A stretch of DNA of 64,000 nucleotides from an uncultured Alphaproteobacteria bacterium (lineage in GTDB: Bacteria; Pseudomonadota; Alphaproteobacteria; RF32; CAG-239). Positions 2,030 through 64,000 of this stretch are shown here, in pieces; positions within the stretch are counted from its first letter, which is position 1; every line of letters begins with the position of its first letter. Location: assembly GCA_947588655.1 (NCBI GenBank), contig CANPYS010000004.1, positions 3,947-67,946 of the forward strand, read 5' to 3'. The translations under genes and the position numbers were made by a program. Under the pieces are notes generated by a model, which saw only the letters and a list, made by a program, of their open reading frames with translations, searched no databases and was not told the origin of the DNA.

Positions 2030-3784
2030 ATGCGTATTGCTGATGATTTTGCTCAAAAAATTTTAAAATTTTTCCAAACCAATATGTGTGTTTTGTTTGT
2101 GATGCTTATTCTTGGTATGACCTTAAGCATCTGTTGTTCGTTTGAAATGAATTGGGATTTTGCCAATTATCATTATTATAACGCCTTTGCTTTCATGCAT
2201 CATCGGCTCAATTTTGACATTGTGCCGGCATCGGTTAACACGTTTTTTAATCCACTGATTGAAATGCCTTTATATTTTGCCATAACGCATTTGAATGAGT
2301 TTCCTAAACTGATTTATGCCTTGCAGGGCGTGAGCTTTGGCTTGATGATGTTTGCTTTATATAAGATTTTTTCACTCTTTTTTACACCTGATAAGCTCAC
2401 AAATGTCTGTCTTATTTTGCTGGCAGTTATCGTATCAATTAGCGGCAAGGCCACGTTTATACAAATCGGGACTTCTACTAATGAAATAAGCATCGCCTTT
2501 TTGATCTTATCAGGGCTTTATATTTTATTAAAAATCATCAAATTTCCCAAACTTCAGGTTTGGTACAAATTTTTAATTGCTGGCCTTATGATGGGCGTGG
2601 CTTTGGGCTTAAAGCCCACTTGCATCACCTGGTGCATGGCAAGTGGCTTGATGTTGATGTTTTGTTTTAAATATCTGCAAAAGCCCGTGCGAAGCATTAT
2701 GCTTTTTGCTATGGGCGGTTTAATGGGATATTTAGTGGTTAACGGCTGGTGGATGCTTGTTCTTTGGCGCTTATATCAAAACCCGTTTTTTCCGTTTTTG
2801 AACGGTATTTTTAAATCAGAATATTTTGATGCCTTTAATTATCGTGACGCGCGCTTTTTGCCAACCAATTTTTTAACCGCGCTTATCTATCCGTTCCAAT
2901 TATACTTCAGTCATGAAAGCAGGGGTAATGATTATCGGCTCACAATATATTATATTTTGCTTTGGAGCTTTCCGCTTTATTTAATGGTAAAATCTCGCTT
3001 CAAATGGTGGCTTAAAAACCGTCCGATGGAAACGGCATTTTTTGTGTTTATGCTTTTGGGTTATATTCTGTGGCTTAATATATTCAGCATTTATCGTTAT
3101 TCGGTTGTCTATGAGTGTTTAGGCTCGGTTATGCTGTTGGCGGTTTTAAAGCATTTTCTGCCGCGTCGTCTTGTTTTTCGGGTTATTTACGCTTCATTTG
3201 TTATTGTTTTCTTATATGCTTTAATCGGTCAATCTTTCAAATTTCTTCAATCTTACAAAATTGACAGAGAAGAAAAATTTATATTTGTAGAGCCAATCCG
3301 CTTGCCAGAGAATACACTCGTTAAACTTTATAACTTCCCGACGGCGGCGGTTATTCCTGAGTTGTATAAAAATAATCCGACTTTGCGCGCGGCGGGCTAT
3401 TCGCAATGGAATATTAAATATATGAAAGGCTCCGATTTTGCAGAACGTGGAAAATTCAGAGGAATACGCGACCAAATTGAAAAGGAGTATAAAAACAAAA
3501 TTATTGTTTATTATAATTCTGATATATTTCCAACATCTTTGGAAGTGTATGATAAAAACTTAGACGCATGCTATAAAATGGCCGAGCATATATTTCAGAC
3601 TGAACATCGTGTCATTAATTGTTTAGATGACGGTAATTTTCATATCATTCGCGAAGCCCTGCGTGAAGAAATGAAAGATGATTATTATTGTCGGTTGCTC
3701 AAAAATAATATTTATCCGACGAGGTGGCATATTTGTGTGCCGAAAGAATTGAAAACTCAAATTTTAGGAGATACTGATGACTGA
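2030..3784 (+). CDS. Polytopic membrane protein, putative GT-C-fold glycosyltransferase
   Basis: 584 aa, many TM segments, N-terminal loop NWDFANYHYYNAFAF...NTFFNPL; overlaps the downstream GtrB-like gene. Confidence 0.6.
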   Translation: MRIADDFAQKILKFFQTNMCVLFVMLILGMTLSICCSFEMNWDFANYHYYNAFAFMHHRLNFDIVPASVNTFFNPLIEMPLYFAITHLNEFPKLIYALQGVSFGLMMFALYKIFSLFFTPDKLTNVCLILLAVIVSISGKATFIQIGTSTNEISIAFLILSGLYILLKIIKFPKLQVWYKFLIAGLMMGVALGLKPTCITWCMASGLMLMFCFKYLQKPVRSIMLFAMGGLMGYLVVNGWWMLVLWRLYQNPFFPFLNGIFKSEYFDAFNYRDARFLPTNFLTALIYPFQLYFSHESRGNDYRLTIYYILLWSFPLYLMVKSRFKWWLKNRPMETAFFVFMLLGYILWLNIFSIYRYSVVYECLGSVMLLAVLKHFLPRRLVFRVIYASFVIVFLYALIGQSFKFLQSYKIDREEKFIFVEPIRLPENTLVKLYNFPTAAVIPELYKNNPTLRAAGYSQWNIKYMKGSDFAERGKFRGIRDQIEKEYKNKIIVYYNSDIFPTSLEVYDKNLDACYKMAEHIFQTEHRVINCLDDGNFHIIREALREEMKDDYYCRLLKNNIYPTRWHICVPKELKTQILGDTDD

Positions 3785-14980: not shown

Positions 14981-16151
14981 ACGGTTCACTTTGCCAATTT
15001 TGCGATTTTTCCACATCTGATAAAAGCGTTGTGGCGGGGTTTGTTGGGTGATATGTTTTGCCCTCCAAGACCAAGGTGTCGGTTGTATTTTGAGCTGTAA
15101 CATATATGTTAGCTCCACCCAACTTCTTAATCTCCAAATATGCCGGCGCGGCGGAAGTCCCCTTTAAAATGAAAGTTACTTTTTTACCATCCATATTCAC
15201 ACCACTTTTAGCATCCAACACAACTCTTGAACCTTCACCAACGGTCAACGTACTTTCTGCATTGTCCACATTACCATAGAAAACGGTGCTTGGTGTGCTG
15301 AAAGTTAACTCGGAATGTCGAAGCGTGAGATGTGAACGTTTCATCAGAACGCGAGTGGTTGTTATATTTAATCTTGAGTTCTCAACCAAAACGGTGGAAT
15401 CGCCTATCAAATCTTTTGAAGTAGATATTGTGACTTGAGCATCTTTAAACCGAAGATCGTGAGCATAATACGCCAATTGATAACCGTTAAGCGTAAATTG
15501 CATATTTCCAGATAAGGTCAAGACACCTTCCCCGCTAAAAATACCGGCATTATGACTGCCTAGTTGCTCAGTTATGGTCAAATTATTGACTTCTGCTTCA
15601 TTGCCGCTATTTGCATTAATTAGAGTTACAGACTCCATCCCTTCGCCTTTTGTAACAAGAGAAAGATTTTGAAGTTTCGTTTGCGAAGTCAGATAAAATT
15701 TTTTAGCTCCAGGAATAGTCAGCGTATGATTAGCACCGTCAATCGTTGTATGACCGTACACCCAAAAATTAGAAACATCTGTCATGGTGATATTGTTACG
15801 CATCGTGACAATTTTGCATTTGCCCGAGCTTGCAAGGTCACTAAGCTCCTCAGCATTGGTGGCAAAACAAGGCGATTGACAGGCTGTATAAGTGTTATCC
15901 GTTTTGCAATGCGCGATATCCGCGCACCAATCTGATTTATCTGATTGTGTAAAGCCTAACGCCTCACAACTGTACTGAACACACTTTTTATATGATTGGT
16001 CGTAAGGGCAAAAAATATAACCATTTTTATCACATTTTGGATTATCTTCTTTGGAATAATTTAACTCTGCACAAGTTGGTTGTTTGCTACAATCTAGCGC
16101 TACCGCCTGATTTGAAAATAAAATTGCTATGAAAAATAAAATATACTTCAT
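14979..16151 (-). CDS. Secreted hypothetical protein: Cys-rich N-domain plus beta-helix-like C-domain
   Basis: Start MKYILFFIAILFSNQAVA at 16151 with GGAGG RBS; about 10 Cys in the first ~115 aa, then T/V/L/G-rich beta repeats. Confidence 0.7.
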   Translation of the reverse strand: MKYILFFIAILFSNQAVALDCSKQPTCAELNYSKEDNPKCDKNGYIFCPYDQSYKKCVQYSCEALGFTQSDKSDWCADIAHCKTDNTYTACQSPCFATNAEELSDLASSGKCKIVTMRNNITMTDVSNFWVYGHTTIDGANHTLTIPGAKKFYLTSQTKLQNLSLVTKGEGMESVTLINANSGNEAEVNNLTITEQLGSHNAGIFSGEGVLTLSGNMQFTLNGYQLAYYAHDLRFKDAQVTISTSKDLIGDSTVLVENSRLNITTTRVLMKRSHLTLRHSELTFSTPSTVFYGNVDNAESTLTVGEGSRVVLDAKSGVNMDGKKVTFILKGTSAAPAYLEIKKLGGANIYVTAQNTTDTLVLEGKTYHPTNPATTLLSDVEKSQNWQSEP

Positions 16152-16185
16152 TTTTTCCTCCTTAATTATAAAGTCTCCCATCCGA

Positions 16186-16469
16186 ATCGTCACCCCGAAT
16201 CGCCCCAAAGCGTCATCCCGAGCCCCTCAAAAATCGTCATTCTGAGGCGGTTTACCGCCGAAGAATCCAGGATAACAAAAGCATCCGAATCGTCATCCCG
16301 AATCGCCCCCCAAACGTCATCCTGAACGCCCTAAACGTCATGCTGAACTTGTTTCAGCATCTCCTCCAAATTGTCATGCTGAACTTGTTTCAGCATCTCC
16401 TCCAAAAGTCATGCTGAACTTGTTTCAGCATCTCTTTTTATGAGCTCCCAAAACGAGTTTGGAATGACG
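16186..16469. repeat. Array of CGTC-type REP-like palindromes and truncated arms
   Basis: Three tandem GTCATGCTGAACTTGTTTCAGCATCTC (16337, 16373, 16408); degenerate right arm ...GAGTTTGGAATGACG ending at 16469; several truncated CGTCAT/CGTCAC starts; CGTCATTCTGAGGCGGTTTACCGCCGAAGAATCCAGG at 16235-16271. Confidence 0.8.
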
Positions 16470-16492
16470 TTTGAGAGAGATTTTTCCTCTCT

Positions 16493-16598
16493 CAAAAAAA
16501 CGTACGTTTAAATGTTCAAATTATCTAGCGAAAAAATATTTGGAAAAACAATGCATTATTTGCTTGACAAAATGCACATTTAAAGGTACGTTTTTTTG
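16493..16598. promoter_or_regulatory. Inverted-repeat-flanked promoter, candidate invertible element 1
   Basis: Arms 16493-16515 and 16576-16598 pair at 22/23; TTGACA (16564-16569) lies 17 bp from TACGTT (16587-16592). Confidence 0.55.
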
Positions 16599-16642
16599 CA
16601 CACATTTTATTGATAAATCGTTGATTTTGCTTATAACATTTG

Positions 16643-16739
16643 CGTCATTCTGAGGCGGTTTACCGCCGAAGAATCCAGGTGGAAAATAAAGCTATATTGT
16701 TGTCCTAGACTCTTCCACCCTTCGGGTGTCAGAGTGACG
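16643..16739. repeat. Complete CGTC-type REP/MITE-like element
   Basis: Left arm identical to 16235-16271; right arm CCTAGACTCTTCCACCCTTCGGGTGTCAGAGTGACG. Confidence 0.8.
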
Positions 16740-16825
16740 TTTTTGGAAAATTTTTCCTCTCTCGTTCTAGCCAAAGAAATGTGGAGAGTGGTACAGATAA
16801 AGTCGTTTTAAGGGCGCGCGAGGAT

Positions 16826-16851
16826 AAAAACAACCCCGACGGGTTGTTTTT
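16826..16851. terminator. Hairpin with A/T flanks, downstream of fabZ
   Basis: aaaaacaaccc-cgac-gggttgttttt. Confidence 0.5.
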
Positions 16852-16921
16852 ACCGCAAGCGGCGTAGCTTTGTTAAAACTGCTAGGGAGCGATAGCGACC
16901 GCGGCAGGTTTTATAAAGCAA

Positions 16922-16974
16922 GTGACCGAAGCGAGTTAGCGATTGCTCAAAGAGCAGAGCTTACGAGCAAGACA
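16922..16974 (-). repeat. Second palindromic repeat family (also at 63785 and 63938)
   Basis: Reverse complement reads TGTCTTGCTCGTAAGCT-hairpin-GCTAACTCGCTTCGGTCAC. Confidence 0.75.
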
Positions 16975-17051
16975 AAATTCTAGTGTACAAAAGAGGTACA
17001 TGAATTTCCCGAGACCCGAAAAAACGGCTTTAGATGTGCCGCTATACGCCT

Positions 17052-17492
17052 TTATTCTAATATCATGGCGGTGAATTCGGCTTCTGAAACTACAGCCCCC
17101 TCCACCATCGCCTGACCGCGGAAAACAAAAACATTGCGACGCGCGTGGATTTTTTCTACATGCATTTGGAGCTGATCGCCAGGCTTCACGGGCTTGCGGA
17201 ATTTAACGCCGTCTATAGACATAAAAAGAACATTGCGCTTTGTATCGGCATAATTTTCATCTTGCGAAACAACAATCGCGCCGGCTGTTTGTGCCATCGC
17301 CTCAATTTGCAAAACGCCGGGCATAACGGGATTGCCGGGAAAATGCCCTTGGAAAAATTCTTCATTCATGGTCACATTTTTAATGCCAACGCCTTTTTCG
17401 CCCGGAACTTCCACTTGCAGACGATCTACAAGCAAAAACGGATAGCGATGCGGGAGCATTTTCATAATTTCTTCAATACGATATTCTTTCAT
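17052..17492 (-). CDS. fabZ: 3-hydroxyacyl-ACP dehydratase
   Basis: LPHRYPFLLVDR, FFQGHFPGNPVMPGVLQIEAMAQ. Confidence 0.97.
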   Translation of the reverse strand: MKEYRIEEIMKMLPHRYPFLLVDRLQVEVPGEKGVGIKNVTMNEEFFQGHFPGNPVMPGVLQIEAMAQTAGAIVVSQDENYADTKRNVLFMSIDGVKFRKPVKPGDQLQMHVEKIHARRNVFVFRGQAMVEGAVVSEAEFTAMILE

Positions 17493-29167: not shown

Positions 29168-30789
29168 TGAAAAGAACTTATATTTTATCCTTTTTATTAT
29201 GTATACTTTTGATGATAGCATCAAATGATATTTGGGCACCCAAGAAAGTAACATTGACCTTTCAGGCTAAAACAAATCAGGACTTTTCTTTACAAACATC
29301 TTTTAATGATTCCTGTTTCAAAAATGAAAGCAATACAACCCTTATCCCATTGGAGGGGGGGGGGAATGAAGTTAAAGTAAAGATTTATGCAAGCAAAATC
29401 AACAGATTGTGCTTAAAAATCATACATCCTATTGATGAAATAACACTTTCTAATTTCAAGCTATCTGGAAAGAAAAATTTAGTTTTTATTAGCTTTGATT
29501 CTTTTAATATTGAAGGCTCTGCAAAGGTACAGGACGACAACAATTTTATCACAATCGCGCCTTCGCCGACAGATGCTTTCATCACAATCAACAATATTTC
29601 TTTCAAAGGAAAACACTCTTTTAACATTCACTTTTTTTTAATTTTAGCTTTTATTTATTTTTTGATTTCATATAAAATTGTTCAATATCTATCGGTTTTT
29701 AAAATTAAAGATTCTTCTTCGCGCATAGACATTGTTTTTGTGGCTGTTTTTTATGTTTTAATTTTTCTGCCAATGAGCAACATCTCCACAGAAGCAAATT
29801 CAATACAAGAAAACAGAAACTTAGCTCAAAAGCCAAGTTTGACAGACCTTTATAAATCAGATAAATATGGCAAAAATTTTGAACTTTGGTTTAATGATCA
29901 TTTTTACTTACGGAAAGATTTTGTAAAATTATACGAATTTTTAAATGATCCGTTATTTTTAAAAGGCAATAAACGTGTTTTAATTGGCAAAGATAATTGG
30001 CTTTTTTATAAAGCTGATAAGAGCGAAAGAAATTTTGCAAATCTGGATTTATTTTCACAAGAAGAACTTAAAAATTTAGCGACTTATTTGAAAAATATTC
30101 AGCAATGGACAAAGAAAAACGGCAAAAGTTTTTATTATTTAATCTGTCCGGATAAAAACAAAATTTACGGCGAATTTTATCAATTTCACGAAAAAGTTTA
30201 TCCCGATTCTCAAAGTCGTGCGCAACAAGTGGTTAATTATTTAAGAGAAAATACAGACATTGAAGTGATTTACCCCTATGATGCATTGCATCAAGCCAAA
30301 TCGCAAGGCTTACTTTATTATAAAAATGATACGCATTGGAACCTTTTTGGCGCTTACATAGCCTATCAGGAGCTTATGAAAAGTATTAAGAAAAAACACA
30401 AGCTCAAAATTTTTAAATATAGCAAATTAGATGAAGAAAAACATCCTTTGGGTGACTTGTCCAAAATGTTTTCTACACCTAAAGAGGACAATGAAACGAC
30501 TTATCTTGTCCCTTCGGTTCAAGATTTATCAAAATGCACCGGCGAAGAGAAAGAAATAAATTGCATTAATCACTTAGGAAAGTTACGAGTCTTTATGCTA
30601 AGAGATTCTTTTACAGATTTTTTAAAACCTTATTTGAATAATACTTTCAAATTTGTTGATTACAACTGGCGCTACAATATTACGAGATCTGACTTAAAAA
30701 AGATAAAAAACAACGCCGATATCATTATTTTAGAACAAGTTGAACGCCTTGTTCCAACATTAACTACGCTTAAATTCCCGAAAGAATAG
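29167..30789 (+). CDS. AlgJ/AlgX-like (DHHW/SGNH) O-acetyltransferase partner, G10 in frame
   Basis: ENRNLAQKP, VLIGKDNWLFY, ICPDKNKIY, DTHWNLFGAY, RDSF; adjacent to an MBOAT gene. Confidence 0.8.
   Translation: MKRTYILSFLLCILLMIASNDIWAPKKVTLTFQAKTNQDFSLQTSFNDSCFKNESNTTLIPLEGGGNEVKVKIYASKINRLCLKIIHPIDEITLSNFKLSGKKNLVFISFDSFNIEGSAKVQDDNNFITIAPSPTDAFITINNISFKGKHSFNIHFFLILAFIYFLISYKIVQYLSVFKIKDSSSRIDIVFVAVFYVLIFLPMSNISTEANSIQENRNLAQKPSLTDLYKSDKYGKNFELWFNDHFYLRKDFVKLYEFLNDPLFLKGNKRVLIGKDNWLFYKADKSERNFANLDLFSQEELKNLATYLKNIQQWTKKNGKSFYYLICPDKNKIYGEFYQFHEKVYPDSQSRAQQVVNYLRENTDIEVIYPYDALHQAKSQGLLYYKNDTHWNLFGAYIAYQELMKSIKKKHKLKIFKYSKLDEEKHPLGDLSKMFSTPKEDNETTYLVPSVQDLSKCTGEEKEINCINHLGKLRVFMLRDSFTDFLKPYLNNTFKFVDYNWRYNITRSDLKKIKNNADIIILEQVERLVPTLTTLKFPKE
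29355..29364 (+). repeat. G10 tract, in frame (LEGGGNE)
   Basis: ttggaGGGGGGGGGGaat. Confidence 0.9.
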
Positions 30790-37547: not shown

Positions 37548-38261
37548 TCAAATTTTTTGAACAACGGCTGTAATTAAAATCGGATAACTTTCTACATCAT
37601 CGGCAAATTTCTCACACACATTTCTGTTGATATTGATTAATCTGCAGATAACAGAGCCAATCCCCCCCCCGTAGGTTTTTAAGGACAAGGTCTTGAATTT
37701 ATCTTTAAGCCGCTCAAAGCATTTTTTTAGTCCCGATTGGCTCAATGATAACATAAAGGGTCCATCTTTCATCTGAGGACCATATGAATCGGTTGAGACA
37801 AGCATCACCCCATCCGGCTTAAGCAATTTCTGCATATTTGATAAAACCAAAAGCGGATCAAGCGTATAAACCAAACATTGCGTAAAGATAATACAATCAA
37901 AGCTGGCCTTAGGGAAGGTGTTAATATCTTCAAAATCAAAGAAAAATTTAATATTATCCTCTGGCTTATAGTTGTGTTTAAACTTTAAACCAGCGCAATA
38001 TGTAACATTTTCTTGAGGGACATACTTTTCGGCATAATTTTCTGTGCCTCTAAATTCTAGAACCTGCCCCTTAATATATTTCCGATTATCTTCAATAAAT
38101 TTTTCAATATAAATTCTATCTGGCGATTCCTTAACCTTCAAAACCGGATTATACCTTTGGATTTTTTTAAATTCAGAGTACTGCTGATTTATATATTTCT
38201 CACACCAGTTAAGATTTTTATAAAATAGCCTTGCCTTGAGTTTTCTAATAAGCCTGACCAT
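37548..38261 (-). CDS. Class I SAM-dependent methyltransferase, G9 in frame
   Basis: GQVLEF, FDCIIFTQCL, LLKPDGVML. Confidence 0.75.
   Translation of the reverse strand: MVRLIRKLKARLFYKNLNWCEKYINQQYSEFKKIQRYNPVLKVKESPDRIYIEKFIEDNRKYIKGQVLEFRGTENYAEKYVPQENVTYCAGLKFKHNYKPEDNIKFFFDFEDINTFPKASFDCIIFTQCLVYTLDPLLVLSNMQKLLKPDGVMLVSTDSYGPQMKDGPFMLSLSQSGLKKCFERLKDKFKTLSLKTYGGGIGSVICRLININRNVCEKFADDVESYPILITAVVQKI
37662..37670 (-). repeat. G9 tract, in frame (YGGGI)
   Basis: aatCCCCCCCCCgta. Confidence 0.9.
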
Positions 38262-39951
38262 ACTTAAGCTCCTTATAAGTTAATAGAAAATTTCTTGCAG
38301 AATACATTTGGTAAACTTCTGCATATTTTGTTTGAACAAATCCCATCACTTGCATACTGCGATATTCATTTAAGGCCTTAGTCCACCGATCATAATCCCA
38401 ACCATCGCCAATTTGAGATTTATACATTTTCAAAACATCAATCTTCTCGTCTATGACATCTTCAATATCCAGCATACAATTTGGCGATTCCATTGGCGTC
38501 CAAACCTCGTACATCACAATTTTTGCATCTCGTTTAAGATGTTGTTTTTTAGCCATACGTACAAAAACATTGCTTGTAGCGTATTGATGCTCTGGATGAT
38601 GATCTCTAATGTATGGAACAAATATATAATCATACTCCTTAAGGTTGACGGCTTGCAAATAATCTTGCATATGTGAATCTATGCGCTTAAACATAGGCGG
38701 AATATCGTAACCTTCATAAATAAAATGCTTCCTAACGCCAAGCCTTTTCATCACTTTTTCAAACTCAGATATGCGTACATCGCTTCTTTCTTTGGCGGTA
38801 AGCTCACGCGTTGCAACACCTGCTGAATTGAGGCACAGAACGTCAAAATTATGTGCATTTTTCAACAAAAGCCCACCAAGGCCAATAATTTCATCATCTG
38901 GGTGCGGGCAAATGCAAAGACATCTGTCTTCTTTTTTTAAAGAAATATAAGAAAATTCTACAGGTTTATTCCTAATTTTTTTATAAACCATCAAGCCACA
39001 AATTTTATATTTTTTTACGACATAATCACAATATCTGATTCTCTTTCTTTTGTAGAAAAAATTTTTAACCGTTTTTATAAATTTGCGAGCTTTAGTTTTG
39101 GAAAGCCAACTTTTTGCCTTTTTTTCAAAAACAGTACCTTTTGTATAATTATAAAATATTTGCTTCACTTTCGGTAAGGCAATTTCTGAAGACGGCTTTG
39201 CACCGCCTGCCAATTGCCAAATAACAGGGTGTTCCAAGGCTTCAAGTATCATCTGATCTGGAAAAATACCTTTATACGTTTTCAAAAAGTTTTCTTTTGT
39301 TAATCGTTCACCAAAACCTGGATTAATTGAATATCTGGGCGGCAATTCTTTATATTTATTACCATCACAAACCAAATTCAAAACATCCATATCTTGCCAA
39401 TGAAGAATTTTCCCCTTTGCTTTGGCAAGGTTGCGAAATTGTTCAAATTTTTGCTCATCAATATACTTTTCAACATCTACCAACATTAAGCCTGCATAGG
39501 TATATTTATGATTTTTCTTTAATCCAAGTTTTGGAATAAATTCTCTTTCTTCATCACCCCAGCCACACGGAACCAGGCCTAAAGAATTTCCTTCTAAATC
39601 AGTATTATAAAGTTCTGAAAGCGATTCTCGAACAATAATGTCACAATCCGAAAATAAATATTTTCTAATTCCTTTTTTATGCATATAAAGAGGAATATTA
39701 AACCGGTAGTAAGTTATCCTTTCATAAGGAAAATCTATCAATTCACTATGTTTGTCAATTTTCACAAATTCAATATCAAAGCTGTATTTTTCTTTAAGTT
39801 TTAAAATTTCTTTTTTAGATTTATCGGACAAATCCGGACTAAACACAAAAAAACTTAACTTATCGTCCTTATTTTTCGTATCAAGGGTTGAGGCTATTGC
39901 AACATACAAATATATGGCATAATTTTCATCACCAACCAAGGCTATATTCAT
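38245..39951 (-). CDS. GT8 glycosyltransferase fused to PIG-L-family deacetylase
   Basis: N-terminal DENYAIYL...YYRF...DCDIIV...DMDVLN; C-terminal CPHPDDEIIGLGG...DHHPEH...YEVW. Confidence 0.85.
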   Translation of the reverse strand: MNIALVGDENYAIYLYVAIASTLDTKNKDDKLSFFVFSPDLSDKSKKEILKLKEKYSFDIEFVKIDKHSELIDFPYERITYYRFNIPLYMHKKGIRKYLFSDCDIIVRESLSELYNTDLEGNSLGLVPCGWGDEEREFIPKLGLKKNHKYTYAGLMLVDVEKYIDEQKFEQFRNLAKAKGKILHWQDMDVLNLVCDGNKYKELPPRYSINPGFGERLTKENFLKTYKGIFPDQMILEALEHPVIWQLAGGAKPSSEIALPKVKQIFYNYTKGTVFEKKAKSWLSKTKARKFIKTVKNFFYKRKRIRYCDYVVKKYKICGLMVYKKIRNKPVEFSYISLKKEDRCLCICPHPDDEIIGLGGLLLKNAHNFDVLCLNSAGVATRELTAKERSDVRISEFEKVMKRLGVRKHFIYEGYDIPPMFKRIDSHMQDYLQAVNLKEYDYIFVPYIRDHHPEHQYATSNVFVRMAKKQHLKRDAKIVMYEVWTPMESPNCMLDIEDVIDEKIDVLKMYKSQIGDGWDYDRWTKALNEYRSMQVMGFVQTKYAEVYQMYSARNFLLTYKELKYGQAY

Positions 39952-40077: not shown

Positions 40078-40188
40078 TTGCAAAAAAACGTACCTTTTTT
40101 TTCAATATTTTTTAAGTTTTCAACAGCTTGAATTCTCTTGAGTTTTTTTCTTGATTTATTATGAAAAAAAAGGTACGTTTTTTTGCAA
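40078..40188. promoter_or_regulatory. Inverted-repeat-flanked promoter, candidate invertible element 2
   Basis: 27-bp perfect IR (40078-40104 / 40162-40188) with 57-bp spacer; TTGATT (40151-40156) lies 17 bp from TACGTT (40174-40179); sits between divergent genes. Confidence 0.6.
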
Positions 40189-40207: not shown

Positions 40208-42098
40208 ATGAATAATCTGAAACCAACCGACAAAATAAAACTTGTAATTTTTGATTTAGATGAAACATTTTGGAACGGTGTTTTAAGCTCTGAAGAAAGT
40301 ATTCAGCCAAAACCCTCTGCCATCAAGCTTGTTAAAACCTTGGTAGATAATGGCATTATGTGTTCAATTTCTTCAAAAAACGACTTTGAAACGGCTAAAA
40401 AGAAATTGATTGAACTCAAAGTTTGGGATAATTTTATCTTTCCTAGTATCAACTGGAACCCCAAAGGCGCACAAATTGCGAAGCTCATTAAAGATGCTCA
40501 TTTACGCGATGAAAATGTGCTTTTTATAGACGATAATCCTTCTAACTTGGCTGAAGCTCAATATTATTGCCCAAGTATTAAAATTGCTACGCCGGATATT
40601 TTTGAAAATATGCTTAAACTGCCTGCAATCCAAGGGGGGGGGGAAGAACGACAAAGATCATACACGCTTAAAGCAGTATAAAATTCTTGAAACAAAACAG
40701 GCAGAAGCCCAAAAATATAATGATAATACCGAATTTTTAAAAGCATCTCAAATCAAAGTAACTTTTTCTGATGTTTCAGATGATAAAATTGAACGAACGA
40801 TAGAACTCATTTTAAGAACAAATCAACTTAATTTTACCAAAAAAAGAATTGATAATACAAAGTTAAAATCTTTACTCAAAAATCAAAATTATGAAAATAA
40901 ATTGATAAACGTTAGCGATAAATATGGCGATTACGGTATTTGTGGCTATTATTGCCTGAATAAAAAAAACAAGACCTTAGAACATTTTATTTTTTCATGC
41001 CGCATTATGAACTTAAAGGTTGAGCAATTTATTTATGCCAAATTAAATTTTCCAAAAATAAAAATTGTTGAACCCGTATCAACCCAATTAAATAATTATG
41101 AACGACCTGATTTTATTAATAAAGATTACAACCTAAAAACAAAGAACAACAAAAAGATAAAAACAAAAGTTTTGCTCTTGGGAAACTGTGATATGCAGTC
41201 AATTTCACATTATGCGACAGGAACGGCAAATAATATAGAGGTAGATTTTTATGTTGATATTAATCCCGAAACACACATGCAAATCCGATATGACAGTGTA
41301 TGGAAAATGAAAAATGCGCTCTCTCTTTCTGATAAACAAAAAGATTCTCTTATAAAAACACACAAGTGGATTTGTGCAAAATCGTTTGAAAATAGGGCAT
41401 TTAAAGACAATTATGATATATTAGCCTTTTCAGTTTTAAATGACTATATGGTGCCAACATATCAGGATAAGCTATCACATATTATACTGACACCAACGAC
41501 GAGCTATAAATATAATATATTTACGGCACCTGTAGATATCATTTTAAAATTATTCAAAGAAAATAATATTATTAATTTTTCTAAATCTGATGTCCTAAAG
41601 ATGCAAAGAAATTTAATAAATGAGCGGTTTATGACAGAAAAAGAGTTTGAAAAAAACTTAAATTGGTTAGTTGAGCATGTTCATAAGCCCATCATATTTC
41701 TTAATGGACCGGAAGTTTTAAGACCAAATGATGATGTTGCATGCTATAAAAGATTTGTAAAATATAACAAAATCTTAGATAAATTTGTTAACACGCATGA
41801 AAATTGCTTTCTTGTTGATGTTAGAAAATATGTTAAAGAGCCTTCAGATACAACCGATGTCGTGACGCACTACCACAGAGAAACATACATCAAACTAGCT
41901 GAAGATTTGCTCACAATTATAAATAACAATCACAATAAGGTAAAATACTTACTTAAAATTAAGTTAATGAAACTTAAATTAGCTGGGTATATCAAGAATA
42001 TTTCCAAATTACGCAAAAAAATATGCCAGTTCAGATTTGGACATAAAGAAAAATACCTGATTTTATTCGGTAAAACAATATTTAAAGCAGATAAATAA
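40208..42098 (+). CDS. FkbH-like HAD-IIIC protein with GNAT domain, frameshifted at G10; ~629 aa if rejoined
   Basis: FDLDETFWNG, SISSKND, INWNPK, FIDDNP, RTNQLNF, DKYGDYG, SCRIM. G9 gives PAIQGGGKNDKDHTRLKQYK. Confidence 0.88.
40634..40643 (+). repeat. G10 tract, out of frame (G9 restores)
   Basis: caaGGGGGGGGGGaag. Confidence 0.9.
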
Positions 42099-49534: not shown

Positions 49535-50275
49535 TCAGTTACGGCCGCCATCAACACGAATAACCTGACCTGTAACATATTCAGATTCGTCTGAAGCCAA
49601 AAATAATGCAACTTTTGCCACATCTTCAGGCATGCCCAACCTTTTCAAACACACCTTAGATTTTTCAGCACAGAGCACTTCAGGCTTCATATTCCTGATT
49701 AACGACGTTTCCGTGACTCCTGGAGCAATACAATTTGCCCTTATACCAAACGATCCCAACTCTTTAGCCAAAGACTTTGTTACCGTTATCAAAGCCGCTT
49801 TTGTCGCGCCGTAAACAGACTGCCCTTCCATGCCTTCCAAGGCACTGATAGAAGATATGTTTATAATACTGCCTTCTTTTTGGCGTACCATCAGTTTACT
49901 AACCAACTGCATAAGATAAAACGGTGCCAAAAAATTGATGTTAAACATTTTTTGAACATCGTCCATCAAAGTCATTTGTACCAAAGATTCCTTAAATATA
50001 CCAGCATTATTTACTAAAATGTGAATAATTTTTTGAGTTTTTATTAATGCTTGAAATTCAAGTTTGATATTCTCATAATTTGCCATATCAAAATAAGCCG
50101 GACGGATATCAACACCATATTTTTCGGCAGTTTCTTTCAAAAACGCAACAAATTCAGGCGTTTCTTTGCGTGCATGTGCAATGATATTTGCCCCATTTTT
50201 AGCAAATTCTTCCACAATCGCCTTCCCGATTCCCCGATTCGTTCCAGTGATAAATGCAGTCTTCCCTTTAAGCAT
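49535..50275 (-). CDS. SDR, FabG-like (paralog 1)
   Basis: TGTNRGIG, NNAG, YGATK, IRVDGG. Confidence 0.92.
   Translation of the reverse strand: MLKGKTAFITGTNRGIGKAIVEEFAKNGANIIAHARKETPEFVAFLKETAEKYGVDIRPAYFDMANYENIKLEFQALIKTQKIIHILVNNAGIFKESLVQMTLMDDVQKMFNINFLAPFYLMQLVSKLMVRQKEGSIINISSISALEGMEGQSVYGATKAALITVTKSLAKELGSFGIRANCIAPGVTETSLIRNMKPEVLCAEKSKVCLKRLGMPEDVAKVALFLASDESEYVTGQVIRVDGGRN
50085..50275. repeat. 191-bp identical direct repeat, copy 1
   Basis: Base-for-base match to 52783-52973 (5' end of both SDR paralogs). Confidence 0.95.
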
Positions 50276-50388: not shown

Positions 50389-51399
50389 TTAGCTTTCTCT
50401 ACCCCCCCCCCGCAGGTTTTTATAGGCTTCTATAATCTTTGCCACTATCTGCGGGGCTGTTAAACCACACTGAGAAAGCATATAGGCATAATCGCCTGCT
50501 TTTTCAAAAACATCCGGAATTCCAATAATTAATTGGGGTGGCATGTTTTCAAAACAGCTTTTATATTCTGCAACCGCACTTCCCAAGCCACCTAAGGCAA
50601 AGTGTTCTTCAATTGTTACAATCAGCCGATGTTTTGCAAACAAGGCTTGAAGCAGTTTTGTATCAAGAGGTTTAATGGTGTGCATATCAACAATTGTTGT
50701 TGAAATATTTTCTTTTGCCAACGCTCTAGACGCCCGCAAAGCTTCTGAAACCATAGAGCCGGTAGCTACAATGGCGACATCTGTCCCCTCTCTTAAAACA
50801 ATACCTTTTCCAATCTGAAAATCATAATCTTCTTTATAAACAGGTGTTGCCCCGTTTGTCCCGCTTAAGCGAATGTAGCACGGACCCTTCATAGAAGCGG
50901 CGACACAAATAGTTTTATATGTTTCAACACCGTCAGCTGGTGATAAAACCGTCATATTCGGAATAACACGAGTAATAGCCAAATCTTCAAGGCCATAATG
51001 CGTATTTCCGACGACACCTCCGGCTAAACCACTCATGAGGCCGACAACTTTTACATTCAAATTCATATATCCGAGTTGGGTTCGTAGCATTTCAAACGGG
51101 CGCATTGTCGCAAAAGGCGCGAATGTTGTTGCAAAGACAGTTTTTCCTGTTGAAGCCAAGCCAGCAGAAATTCCAATCATATTTTGTTCGGCAATTCCCA
51201 CATTAACAAATTTTTCCGGTGCTTTTTCGGCAAATTCCTTTAAGCGGGCAGAGCCCATAACATCAGCAACGACAACTCTTAAATCGGGCATATTCTGCTC
51301 TATATCTGTTAGTGCCAAACCAAAAACACCCCTGGATGAAATACGGGAAAAATGCTGAACTGTTTGCATATCATACATCATAGTTTTACTCCAACTCAC
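50389..51399 (-). CDS. Transketolase-like C-terminal (pyrimidine-binding) subunit, G10 at 3' end
   Basis: NVGIAEQNM, THYGLEDLA, VDMHTIKPLD, EEH...GGLG. Confidence 0.92.
   Translation of the reverse strand: MSWSKTMMYDMQTVQHFSRISSRGVFGLALTDIEQNMPDLRVVVADVMGSARLKEFAEKAPEKFVNVGIAEQNMIGISAGLASTGKTVFATTFAPFATMRPFEMLRTQLGYMNLNVKVVGLMSGLAGGVVGNTHYGLEDLAITRVIPNMTVLSPADGVETYKTICVAASMKGPCYIRLSGTNGATPVYKEDYDFQIGKGIVLREGTDVAIVATGSMVSEALRASRALAKENISTTIVDMHTIKPLDTKLLQALFAKHRLIVTIEEHFALGGLGSAVAEYKSCFENMPPQLIIGIPDVFEKAGDYAYMLSQCGLTAPQIVAKIIEAYKNLRGGGRES
50402..50411 (-). repeat. G10 tract four codons before stop
   Basis: aCCCCCCCCCCgcag. Confidence 0.9.
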
Positions 51400-52235: not shown

Positions 52236-52973
52236 TTACCCCCCCCCATCAACACGGATAGGTTGTCCATTAATAAAGGACGATTCGTCTGAAGCCAAAA
52301 ACACCGCAACTTTAGCAATCTCTTGAGGATATGCTTTACGCTTCATCGCTGATGTTTCAATCATTTTATTTCCGTTTTCAGGTTTCATTTGGGCGCCCAT
52401 ATCCGTATCCGTTAACCCCGGACAAATGGCATTAACCCTCACGCCGTTTGTGCCGCATTCTGCAGCCAAAGTTTGCGTAAACGCAATTAAGGCCGCTTTT
52501 GAAACGCCATAAGCACAATTTCCTTCCAACATATCTATTCCCGAGATAGAAGACATGTTTATAATGCTACCGCCACCACAGCGAATAATCCAACGTAAAA
52601 GCTGTTGGGTCAATTCCAAATGTGCGAAAAAGTTTATTTCAAAAACTTCCCTGATTTTTTGTATAGAGGTCATTTGAAAATAACCACCATGAGCAATGCC
52701 GGCATTATTAACCAAAATATGCACAGGAATTTTTGAGGCAATTAGCGCCCGAATGTTTTGCTTCATGGCATCATAATCGGTTATATCAAAATAAGCCGGA
52801 CGGATATCAACACCATATTTTTCGGCAGTTTCTTTCAAAAACGCAACAAATTCAGGCGTTTCTTTGCGTGCATGTGCAATGATATTTGCCCCATTTTTAG
52901 CAAATTCTTCCACAATCGCCTTCCCGATTCCCCGATTCGTTCCAGTGATAAATGCAGTCTTCCCTTTAAGCAT
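52236..52973 (-). CDS. SDR, FabG-like (paralog 2), G9 immediately before stop
   Basis: First 63 aa identical to paralog 1; YGVSK; ends RVDGGG-stop. Confidence 0.92.
   Translation of the reverse strand: MLKGKTAFITGTNRGIGKAIVEEFAKNGANIIAHARKETPEFVAFLKETAEKYGVDIRPAYFDITDYDAMKQNIRALIASKIPVHILVNNAGIAHGGYFQMTSIQKIREVFEINFFAHLELTQQLLRWIIRCGGGSIINMSSISGIDMLEGNCAYGVSKAALIAFTQTLAAECGTNGVRVNAICPGLTDTDMGAQMKPENGNKMIETSAMKRKAYPQEIAKVAVFLASDESSFINGQPIRVDGGG
52239..52247 (-). repeat. G9 tract at stop codon; G8/G11 fuses SDR to transketolase
   Basis: ttaCCCCCCCCCatc. Confidence 0.9.
52783..52973. repeat. 191-bp identical direct repeat, copy 2
   Basis: See 50085-50275. Confidence 0.95.
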
Positions 52974-56247: not shown

Positions 56248-57378
56248 TTTTCTTCTCCTTTAAAAGATTTAATCCAATTGTTAATTTGTTCTTCTCTTGT
56301 TGGGCGATTCGCAGGAGGTACATAAGTTGATATACCTCCATTATATAAACCTCGCAGATTTATTGCTCCCCCCCCCCCAAGATAATCCTACACCAAACCC
56401 ACATAGAATGGTATTTCCCCAAGTTTTACCCTGAGGTTGATCACATAAAAGCGTAGCTAGCGAATTTGTTGAATTATTAGCATATTTCGTAAAAACATCT
56501 GTCGGCGCTTTTTGCACAGAAACACCTGCACTGCTAACAATATTCTCTACAATTTGCTTATTTGCCTGATGTATGGCATATAAATCAACATCGGCATCTG
56601 TCCATCCGGCAAGAGCCAACGTCTGCTTTATTGTTTGCGGGGCGACATCCATCGTGAATCTAAAAACATCTTCTCCCTTTATAATTCTATCTGATGCAGC
56701 ACGCCAAGAAAATGGGCCATCTTGAAGTATCAGATTCAAAATATCCACATCTAACGGCAAACGCGCACCGCCAAAAGGACAAATAATTTTATCAAACCCA
56801 CTCCCGTCTGTTCCTACCACAAAAAAAGATTTATACACATCTGATGAATATTCTAAAATTGTGGCGGAAGCAGCATCGCCAAAAACACGGGCATCTTTTG
56901 CTTGCGCCGAGCCTGTTCTGGAGGGAATATCCCCTGCCAAAAGGAGGCACTTTTTTCCAAGCCCAACCTCTAATAATGCATGCGCCACTAAAAGCGCTTG
57001 CATATAACCTGAACAGCCAGAATTTATATCAAGCGCAAAACACTCTTTTTTTAACCCCAACATACCATGAGCAACACTAGCATTATTAGGCTCCTTATAA
57101 TCAGGCTTTTGACTTACAAAAACAAGTAAATCAATTTCTTCGGTGCTGATACCCATTTCATGCATAAGCTTCTTGGCAGCATCTGTAGCCATATCCGTTA
57201 CAGTTGTTAAATCGTCCGCAATATAGCGACGCCCATAACCAACCATCTTTTTAGCACGAGCTAACTTTTTAGGGTTATTATCAAAAAATTCAAGCTCATC
57301 TTCCACATTTATCATATGTTGCGGTATAACTGTCTTTATACCACTAACCTTAACATGATTAAAAGATGTCGTTGTCAT
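56244..57378 (-). CDS. FabH/KAS III-like synthase (paralog 2), frameshifted at G11; ~377 aa if rejoined
   Basis: NSGCSG, FGDAASA, IHQANK, GFGVGLSW. G10 adds GGGAINLRG...REEQINNWIKSFKGEEK-stop, which parallels the paralog 1 tail and overlaps the ACP start (ATGA). Confidence 0.88.
56368..56378 (-). repeat. G11 tract, out of frame (G10 restores)
   Basis: gctCCCCCCCCCCCaag. Confidence 0.9.
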
Positions 57379-58086: not shown

Positions 58087-59191
58087 TTACCCTTTTGTTC
58101 CATAATATTGTTTAATTGCAGCACAAATATTTTGAACATCATTATGAGTTAATGCAGGGTAAGATGGAAAATTAATTCCTCTAGAGGCTAAGTTTTCTGC
58201 AACTGGTAAACACTCAAACCGTTTGTTATACACCGGCATTTGGTGTATACATGGAAATGTTGGTCGGGTTTCTATACCCCCCCCCCATTGATTTCAAAGA
58301 TTCTCTTAGGGCTGTTCTATCTTCCTTAGATTCCGCCAGTGCGGATACCATCCAAAATGTGTGAAAAACATCACCAACAGGTTTATGAAAAACAAGAGGC
58401 GTATGCGCTAATTCCTCCATATACCATAGAGCAACCTGACGCTTGGCCGCAATAAACTTTTCAATCTGTTCAAACTGCGCCAGACCAATTGCCCCTTGAA
58501 TGTTTGTCATACGATAATTATACGCCGAAACATCATGCCAATATTCACGCCACGCAACAACACCCTGCCCGTGCAAATGAACAACGCGCTCAAATAATTC
58601 GTCATTGTTACAAACAACCATACCACCTTCACCGGTTGTAATCGTTTTATTTCCAAAAAACGAAAAACAAGCAATATCCCCAAAACTGCCAACTTTTTGA
58701 CCCTTATATTCAGAACCAATTGCTTCTGCACAATCTTCTATCAAAAACAAATTATATTTTTTAGCTAATGCGCACAAAGTATCCATCTCAGCCGGATGGC
58801 CATATAAATGTACGACCATTATAGCCTTGGTTTTAGGAGTAATTTTACGTTCAATATCACTCGGATCCATTTGCCAGCTATCGGGTAAACTATCACAAAA
58901 AACAACTTTACAACCAAGCTGTGCAAACGGATTCGCTGAAGCTATATAAGTAAACGTTGGACAAATAACCTCATCACCTTCACCCAAGCCAAGAGCTGAA
59001 GCCGCCAAATGAATTGCAACCGTACCATTACAGACACCTTTACCATGTTTAACACCTATAAAATTGGTAAAAGCTTTTTCAAAATCAGTCACAAAATGCC
59101 CTTTGCACGAAATCCAACCCGTATCAAGACACTCATCAACATACTTCTTTTCATTTCCAGTTAAACTTGGTTGGTAAACAGGATATTTCAT
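58087..59191 (-). CDS. per: GDP-perosamine synthase (DegT/DnrJ aminotransferase), frameshifted at G10; ~367 aa if rejoined
   Basis: CNGTVAIHLA, EDCAEA, SFFGNKTITTGEGG, YNYRMTNIQGAIG. G9 restores GIETRPTFPCIHQMPVY...LASRGINFPSYP. Confidence 0.88.
58277..58286 (-). repeat. G10 tract, out of frame (G9 restores)
   Basis: ctataCCCCCCCCCCattg. Confidence 0.9.
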
Positions 59192-63766: not shown

Positions 63767-63784
63767 AAATAGTTTAACATAAGG

Positions 63785-64000
63785 CGCCTTGCCCTTAAGC
63801 TTTGCGTTAATCGCAAAGCTAACTCGCTTCGGTCACCGCTCTGTAACGCTTGCATCGGCGCCTGCCGGTACCTCGCAAGCTAACACTCGCGTAATTCACC
63901 AGTTAAAAAGGCGCCGTTAAGGCGCCTTTTTAAAGGGTGTCTTGCTCCTAAGCTTTGCGTTAATCGCAAAGCTAACTCACTTCGGTCACCGCTCTGTAAC
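63785..64000. repeat. Two copies of the palindromic repeat family seen at 16922
   Basis: 52-bp taagctttgcgttaatcgcaaagctaactc(g/a)cttcggtcaccgctctgtaac at 63796-63847 and 63949-64000, one mismatch, 153 bp apart. Confidence 0.9.
63905..63931. terminator. Bidirectional-type terminator hairpin
   Basis: aaaaaggcgcc-gttaa-ggcgccttttt. Confidence 0.65.

Follow-up and report, generated by a model that had tools for sequence, protein, structure and literature searches.

Can a promoter enclosed by short inverted repeats, in front of the gene for an adhesin-like protein, be switched by turning over the DNA between the repeats? The question is raised by a 106-bp element (element 1) in a 64,000-nucleotide stretch of contig CANPYS010000004.1 from an uncultured alphaproteobacterium; this whole stretch is called the window in the following. 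A previous analysis made from the letters of the DNA alone (the sequence-only reading) had proposed that element 1 is an invertible promoter and that it matches an element of 105 bp at 40 kb (element 2). We found that the combination of inverted repeats and promoter is far beyond chance, and that the two elements belong to a real, recurrent and non-random family of regulatory elements centred on GTAC. Inversion itself is plausible from the sequence, and no flipped copy was found in the assemblies compared. The reading that we favour, tentatively and at slightly less than an even chance, is that elements 1 and 2 are very compact 'split-promoter' invertons run by an invertase encoded elsewhere.

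Elements 1 and 2 are the sole strong local inverted repeats detected by a repeat search of the whole window, and element 1 is the longest of all. Its arms, CAAAAAAACGTACGTTTAAATGT and ACATTTAAAGGTACGTTTTTTTG, pair at 22 of 23 positions, and the symmetry extends to 43-nt arms with 81% complementarity and 20 nt between them. The arms of element 2 form an inverted repeat matched at 27 of 27 positions. The 13-mer CAAAAAAACGTAC occurs exactly four times in the window, without mismatch, and these occurrences are the four outer arm ends. The spacers of the two elements have little in common outside the -35 region. In element 1, TTGACA is separated from TACGTT by exactly 17 bp, and the pattern TTGAYN-N17-TACSTT matches the window only twice, in elements 1 and 2, versus 0.09 matches expected. 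A simple promoter scanner was silent on both promoters because TACGTT agrees with TATAAT at only three of six positions. If the DNA between the GTAC centres were turned over, the -35 of element 1 would come to lie on the minus strand at 16522-16527, at 17 bp from the minus-strand TACGTT, so that the promoter would be rebuilt toward the gene starting at 16151. Thus, the sequence-only reading was right on the pairing of the arms around a 60-bp spacer, the 17-bp promoter spacing with the -10 inside the arm, the geometry of the flip, the shared outer 13 bp and similar length of the two elements, and their unrelated spacers (Table 1).

Table 1. Coordinates of the GTAC elements, the neighbouring genes and representative homopolymeric tracts in the window
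Feature	Position	Strand	Remarks
Element 1, left arm CAAAAAAACGTACGTTTAAATGT	16493-16515		GTAC centre 16502-16505
Element 1, spacer (60 bp)	16516-16575		Partly self-complementary; L060 and L061 (paralogous copies) have a near-identical one
Element 1, right arm ACATTTAAAGGTACGTTTTTTTG	16576-16598		GTAC centre 16586-16589, 84 bp from left centre
Element 1, -35 hexamer TTGACA	16564-16569	+	Points away from the 390-amino-acid gene
Element 1, -10-like TACGTT	16587-16592	+	TA of the GTAC centre plus first four outer half-site bases; inside right arm
Element 1, mirror hexamer TAGATA	16522-16527	-	4/6 match to TTGACA; 17 bp from minus-strand TACGTT 16504-16499
Secreted adhesin-like protein, 390 amino acids	14979-16151	-	Presumed target of element 1 in the inverted state
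Element 2, left arm TTGCAAAAAAACGTACCTTTTTTTTCA	40078-40104		GTAC centre 40090-40093
Element 2, right arm	40162-40188		GTAC centre 40173-40176, 83 bp from left centre
Element 2, -35 hexamer TTGATT	40151-40156	+	17 bp before TACGTT
Element 2, -10-like TACGTT	40174-40179	+	Inside right arm; 29 bp before ATG at 40208
HAD-family (FkbH-like) gene	40208-42098	+	Faced by the element 2 promoter in the sequenced state
GT8 + PIG-L glycosyltransferase/deacetylase gene	38245-39951	-	First gene of a glycan operon of ~8 kb on the minus strand; alternative target of element 2 in the event of inversion
Examples of G/C tracts	29355-29364, 40634-40643, 50402-50411, 56368-56378, 58277-58286		

The sequence-only reading had also proposed a genome-wide search for paired arms. 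Such a search was run on GTDB genomes, in which the source species of the window is absent, with the pattern AAAAAACGTAC-N60-90-GTACGTTTTTT and no promoter specified. It returned nine loci, and only L005 is a clear relative. This locus comes from a metagenome-assembled genome (MAG) of the Alphaproteobacteria (CALXPZ01), carries the same outer half-sites and TTGATT-17-TACGTT, and its promoter lies 36 bp before the start codon of a gene for an autotransporter of 1072 amino acids. The outer half-site CAAAAAAACGT is common to L005, element 2 and the left arm of element 1. Two Prevotella matches of the same scan (L001 and L007) were rejected as relatives, being arrays of a different repeat. With the same pattern, a scan of JGI metagenomes gave 36 loci, all of them hairpin terminators or unrelated repeats and none with TTGA-17-TACGTT, and a scan of viral contigs gave one irrelevant match and nothing related. 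Contig look-ups through proteins paralogous to the 390-amino-acid protein added L055, L060 and L061, each upstream of such a paralogue, which makes four family members outside the window. L060 and L061 have spacers almost identical to that of element 1, and these element-1-type copies move together with the paralogous gene and with homologous upstream DNA of ~400 bp. L055 lies between rbfA and mutS, upstream of a paralogue that is 74% identical; the spacer of L055 is unrelated and the arms have changed to CAATTTWAAGGTACCTTWAAATTG, TTGACA-17-TACCTT being kept.

Each arm of the six elements is a dyad-symmetric site of 24-27 bp on an invariant GTAC centre, and the dyad matches reach 14/14 in the right arm of L055. 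A profile built from 16 independent half-sites has the consensus (G/C)-M-A-W-W-W-A-A-A-S-G-T, read toward the centre; GTAC is its only fully invariant tetramer (16/16 half-sites), the adjacent position being freely C or G. The centres are 84 bp apart in element 1, L060 and L061, 83 in element 2, 85 in L055 and 73 in L005, which corresponds to 8.0, 7.9, 8.1 and 6.95 turns of 10.5 bp, respectively. As judged by consensus match only, the -35 stands beside one arm only in all six elements, in a fixed register of 17 bp from the -10, and the -10 consists of the central TA and the first four bases of the outer half-site (CGTT or CCTT). The arms share a short core across loci, and the inverted repeat of elements 1 and 2 extends further in an element-specific manner, the asymmetries of each site being mirrored in its partner.

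The direction of the promoter differs between loci. At element 2 and at L005, it points toward a gene, in a compact order of promoter, ribosome-binding site and ATG, which supports a working promoter; in element 2 the ribosome-binding site is an AGGAG located between TACGTT and the ATG at 40208. In element 1, L060, L061 and L055, the consensus TTGACA promoter is directed away from the adhesin-like gene, and that of L055 runs into a strong bidirectional terminator, AAAAAACGTCCGAAGAAATCGGACGTTTTTTTT, ~50 nt downstream. As the mirror hexamer that faces the gene, element 1 and L060 have TAGATA and L055 has a poor sequence; L061 has TTGATG there and thus -35 hexamers in both directions. On the 'away' side, the flank of L055 is unrelated to that of the element-1 type, and therefore no conserved divergent product is apparent. 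A consensus promoter aimed at no gene looks like an inverton in its OFF state and would be difficult to account for if the promoter were static.

Under the favoured split-promoter model, a global invertase encoded elsewhere, in the manner of Mpi in Bacteroides, would bind both sites as dimers and synapse them across the ~84-bp loop, and cutting at the central TA would be followed by inversion of the segment between the centres. Because the -10 is built from the central TA and the outer half-site, a crossover at the centre would move the good -35 and the 17-bp promoter spacer only. The -10 (the TA of the centre with CGTT or CCTT of the fixed outer half-site) would stay at both ends, so that a single mobile -35 could complete a promoter at either of them. 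In the sequenced state, element 1 would fire away from the adhesin-like gene, i.e. be OFF, and the promoter of element 2 would be directed at the HAD/FkbH-like gene, with the divergent GT8 glycan operon behind it.

We favour this model for several reasons. The arms combine a short shared core with perfect element-specific extensions that mirror the asymmetries of the sites; the layout of the sites matches that of Mu gix (see below); a good promoter that points at nothing resembles an inverton that is OFF; and the family recurs in L005, L055, L060 and L061. Moreover, the neighbouring genes belong to classic phase-variable classes (a beta-solenoid adhesin-like protein, an autotransporter and glycan-modifying operons), in a genome full of contingency tracts. 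Finally, the GT8 operon is left without any other recognisable promoter, since a promoter scan found no other sigma70-like promoter in the GT8/HAD intergenic region.

When the 16-half-site profile is set against the real gix sequence, the layout is that of the sites of Hin, Gin and Cin (hix and gix), a 26-bp dyad site with two 12-bp half-sites around a 2-bp core, and the order of outer recognition block, A-tract, two G/C pairs and central dinucleotide is also the same. Mu gix reads TTATCCAAAACC-TC-GGTTTACAGGAA (26 bp, inside a 34-bp perfect repeat), and the left arm of element 2 can be written in the same way as TGCAAAAAAACG-TA-CCTTTTTTTTCA. In both cases the perfect inverted repeat exceeds the site, its length being 34 bp for Mu and 27 bp for element 2. 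However, the outer recognition block differs (GCA versus TTATC in gix), and the central TA is palindromic in all sites of the GTAC family and gives them no polarity, whereas the TC of gix is asymmetric. The segment is also 10 to 40 times shorter (~84 bp as compared with 1-4 kb), there is no adjoining invertase gene with an enhancer, and a lone -35 would be moved here, whereas whole promoters or coding segments are switched by the Hin/Gin systems.

Mpi, a serine recombinase, flips 13 regions, and seven of these are polysaccharide promoters (PMC4747536). The GTAC elements resemble the Mpi/fin system of Bacteroides fragilis in the dispersal of promoters beside genes for surface polysaccharides or surface proteins, in a short common core within longer locus-specific inverted repeats, and in having no recombinase beside the sites, hence an enzyme that would act in trans. 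They differ from it in host and promoter. The host is apparently an uncultured alphaproteobacterium and not a member of the Bacteroidales: L005 is labelled Alphaproteobacteria, and the window encodes a bamA-lpxD-fabZ cluster and an ATP12-like protein that falls just under the Pfam threshold (26.1 versus 27 bits). The promoter is of the sigma70-like type TTGACA-17-TAnnnT (TTGACA-17-TACGTT in element 1) instead of the Bacteroides TAnnTTTG (at -7). No Mpi homologue was identified here. Segments inverted by Mpi measure ~170-230 bp and carry the whole promoter, as compared with 73-85 bp between centres and a -10 within the repeat in the GTAC family. The motif ARACGTWCGT, named as the Mpi core by the sequence-only reading, was not found in the literature searched; the left arm of element 1 fits it (AAACGTACGT), and the other three arms in the window miss it by one base (AAACGTACCT). 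Thus, the GTAC element works most like the Mpi/fin system and yet cannot be filed as a member of it, because host and promoter type differ and only one of the four arms fits the putative core.

In a MAG of the Bacteroidales (JAZRZP010000039), positions 1006-1117 of L006, another of the nine loci from GTDB genomes, hold palindromic arms, GTCAAAAAAAACGTACGTTTTTT and its inverse, of the A6CGTACGT6 type. Their centres are 94 bp apart, or nine helical turns, and both arms fit AAACGTACGT. From its sequence, this locus may be a Bacteroidales counterpart of the GTAC site type.

A number of observations weigh against inversion. The opposite orientation was not found in nine consensus assemblies or in three element-1-type paralogues: element 2 is identical and in the same orientation in four of four assemblies (the window and ENA L014-L016), the L055 element has a single orientation in five of five (L055-L059), and the element-1-type paralogues agree in all three cases. 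Contig look-ups through flanking proteins did not reveal a flipped copy either; many of these contigs stop within or close to the upstream module, which is present in several copies, and so carry no information on orientation, that of L064 beginning 14 nt inside the gene-proximal arm. No recombinase is encoded in the window, as had been stated before, in that a Pfam scan found neither Resolvase nor Phage_integrase domains in 50 open reading frames (ORFs), about four small ORFs lying outside the scan. The eight genes at 20.8-29.2 kb have ordinary housekeeping Pfam domains only, according to the precomputed annotation of an overlapping contig, and a recombinase gene is also absent from every flank retrieved for the relatives. 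To our knowledge, 73-85 bp between centres is shorter than in any characterised inverton, and the loop would be very tight. The central TA, being palindromic, cannot alone dictate inversion, and the two-way -35 hexamers of L061 would defeat a switch. Arms that are near-perfect palindromes in helical phase are equally a signature of looping operators, and the spacers are partly palindromic. Finally, in a related strain the stretch that corresponds to 16090-17060 of the window (L012 660-1525) has a different upstream region, from which the GTAC element is absent.

The proposal of an invertible promoter is upheld in part. Its anatomy is real and recurs at other loci and in another organism, and inversion is not seen in the consensus assemblies. 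The sequence-only reading had held that a single orientation in deep reads and related genomes would speak against it, and one orientation is indeed what was found. However, the assemblies are consensus sequences at 3-7x coverage, in which a minority orientation would escape notice; they show that orientation is not balanced, and fixation is not implied.

The alternative that survives best, which we consider unlikely while giving it appreciable weight, is a static region in which a dimeric transcription factor loops two operators 73-85 bp apart and occludes the -10 within the operator of a fixed, partly bidirectional promoter. Static repressor operators had already been named as an alternative by the sequence-only reading. 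The layout is indeed that of looping operators such as lac O1-O3, gal OE-OI and those of NagC and AraR, i.e. a pair of palindromic, dyad-symmetric sites separated by whole helical turns, one of which overlaps the core promoter. The palindromes reach 14/14 matches (L055), and all four independent distances lie within 1 bp of a whole turn, with a chance of ~0.007 by our own arithmetic. In addition, the -10 is covered by the site, and the partly symmetric spacers carry a mirror -35-like hexamer, with good -35 hexamers both ways in L061. The single orientation across all assemblies and paralogues and the lack of a recombinase in the ORFs scanned are also in accordance with static operators. The near-palindromic arms, the centres in helical phase and L061 keep this alternative alive. 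However, it leaves four adhesin-family loci with a consensus-quality promoter that points off the genes, into a terminator in L055, and with a weak hexamer facing the gene; the 'away' flanks differ between L055 and element 1. Operators of a regulon are not normally extended in an element-specific manner between the two sites of one promoter, as seen over 27/27 positions in element 2. Moreover, the most conserved parts are the GTAC centre and the outer block, with an A/T tract between them, a pattern of serine recombinase sites and not typical of helix-turn-helix operators. No cognate regulator is known for the GTAC sites, and no regulator gene adjoins any copy.

An epigenetic switch of the pap, agn43 or gtr type, where a regulator would compete with a GTAC-specific methyltransferase to give heritable ON and OFF states without rearrangement, is in our view improbable. 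In pap, two GATC sites are located in the Lrp-binding region, and the paired GTAC layout recalls this arrangement. As in these Dam-dependent switches, two short palindromic targets of methylation type would lie within predicted protein-binding sites at the promoter of an adhesin gene or glycan operon, and adhesin-like and glycan-modifying targets are the classes that such switches control. The sole invariant tetramer in the 16 half-sites is GTAC, flanked by either C or G, and two sites ~8 turns apart surround the promoter. The tetramers avoided in the window point to strong methylation and restriction pressure on the organism: TCGA occurs 4 times versus 91 expected, and the ratios of observed to expected occurrences are 0.31 for GGCC and 0.36 for GATC, which suggests restriction-modification pressure on these three sites. 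However, GTAC itself is not depleted (observed/expected 1.2), and there is thus no sign of a GTAC restriction-modification system. Neither a GTAC methyltransferase nor a regulator is identified for the elements, whose tetramer is GTAC instead of GATC and whose sites are full palindromes of 24-26 bp. The strong promoters that point away from genes are left unexplained, as in the static model.

It is very improbable that the arms are the ends of a miniature inverted-repeat transposable element (MITE), or that the whole element is a hairpin in RNA or DNA, for instance a bidirectional terminator. In favour of these readings, element 1 and element 2 each give a long hairpin with a T-run behind it (-33 and -37 kcal/mol, respectively; z = -7.5 and -8.5), element 1 is missing in the related strain and element-1-type copies occur at several loci. 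Against them, there are no target-site duplications (flanks TCTCTC/CACACA in element 1 and GGTAC/CATTG in element 2), element 2, L005 and L055 have interiors unrelated to that of element 1 with only the arms and the -35 register in common, the element-1-type copies do not move alone but with ~400 bp of upstream DNA and the gene, L005 and L055 fold no better than shuffled sequences (z = -2.5 and -0.6), a terminator would have no role between the divergent genes at element 2, and Rfam gives only sub-threshold matches to generic hairpin families. The missing duplications and unrelated interiors exclude the MITE ends with target-site duplications that the sequence-only reading had listed as an alternative. 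The Rfam matches, obtained with gathering and relaxed thresholds, were microRNA precursors and one small RNA, and a transfer RNA scan found none. Two protein-binding motifs were also rejected. A CtrA box (TTAA-N7-TTAA) was judged by eye, and its spacing is wrong (N8) and the box is not general across the arms. The consensus of the integration host factor, WATCAANNNNTTR, has one match beside element 1 (16614-16626, minus strand) and also matches in its paralogues; as it is missing at element 2 and L005, it was not taken as evidence.

Returning to the compact split-promoter inverton, a broader claim is possible, although we hold it with reserve: that these elements represent a new class of ultra-compact invertons, with ~84 bp between crossover points, in uncultured Alphaproteobacteria, in which a trans-acting Hin/Mpi-like invertase would shuttle one -35 between two fixed outward -10 boxes, element 2 toggling divergent glycan operons, on top of ~19 poly-G/C tracts. 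Should the elements invert, they would rank with the smallest known switches based on DNA inversion. Their design would be unusual, as the recombination site would double as a -10 box and the -35 alone would move, and it would be informative on the tightness of the loops that serine invertases can make in DNA. Such elements would also extend Mpi-like global promoter inversion from the Bacteroidales to an uncultured alphaproteobacterial lineage, whose adhesins and surface glycans would appear to be subject to two stacked mechanisms, the flipping of promoters and poly-G slippage. If they are instead static or methylation sites, the result would be a new regulon motif, CAWWWWAAASGTACSTTTWWWWTG, in paired form, for surface structures, which is useful but ordinary.

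Element 1 lies in a repeat-rich intergenic region of 900 bp, between the end of the bamA-lpxD-fabZ operon, upstream of it on the minus strand, and the gene for the 390-amino-acid protein, downstream of it and also on the minus strand. This protein combines a beta-solenoid body with a Cys-rich domain at the N-terminus and a signal peptide. In the PDB, its AlphaFold2 model (predicted local distance difference test score of 80) best matches the binding regions of SRRP adhesins of Lactobacillus reuteri (5nxk and 5ny0), followed by pectate lyases. The family is lineage-restricted and consists of ~45 proteins. The related strain (L010 and L012; 99% identical through fabZ) has a different member of this family of ~400-amino-acid proteins after fabZ, and the locus after fabZ behaves like a replaceable cassette.

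The intergenic sequences on both sides of element 1 (16209-16492 and 16599-17051) form a mosaic of small repeats. They include three tandem 36-nt units at 16330-16436, all of which are hairpins (ATGCTGAACTTGTTTCAGCAT), a 37-nt hairpin unit present in identical form at 16235 and 16643, units of the GTCATCCCGAATCG type, and a GTGACCGAAGCGAGTTAGC unit with further copies at 63783 and 63936 (63783-64000). Gene callers read through these small repeats in some relatives, for example in the N-terminus of P0007. A conserved module, GCGTATAGCGGCACATCTAAAGCCGTTTTTTCGGGTCTCG..AAATTCATGTACCTnTTTTGTACACTAGAATTTTG ... CCCTTAAAACGACTTTATCTGYACCACTCTCC, is located after the upstream gene (fabZ or rbfA) and before members of the adhesin-like family, at 17045-16975 and 16818-16787 (minus strand) of the window, at ~4530-4640 of L055, and at ~680-950 and ~1060-1115 of L012. 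It holds two more GTACs, 11 bp apart, in an imperfect palindrome, and may serve as an additional binding site or mark the edge of a cassette in the swapping of family members.

Element 2 is located between the divergent GT8 + PIG-L and HAD/FkbH-like genes, both within a low-GC glycan-biosynthesis island that extends from ~29 kb to 64 kb. The HAD gene is split into two frames at a tract of ten G residues (G10; Table 1), with overlapping ORFs at 40208-40681 and 40584-42098, and nine residues instead of ten would fuse them into ~630 amino acids. The length of this tract is unchanged (10) in three other assemblies. In total, 19 homopolymers of G or C, of 8-11 nt, are present in the 64 kb (505-60655), and nearly all of them lie within genes of the glycan island or where such genes end. 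These tracts look like slipped-strand contingency loci of the Campylobacter or Haemophilus style, in an apparent alphaproteobacterium. The island also contains a 203-nt direct repeat with 98% identity (50073-50275 and 52771-52973), which sits in paralogous short-chain dehydrogenase genes (49535-50275 and 52236-52973) of a fatty-acyl/LuxC-LuxE-like cluster. Another direct repeat, of 98 nt and 97% identity (193-290 and 1932-2029), is found directly upstream of two consecutive genes that have no Pfam matches (461-1933 and 2030-3784), and its position suggests a duplicated promoter or leader.

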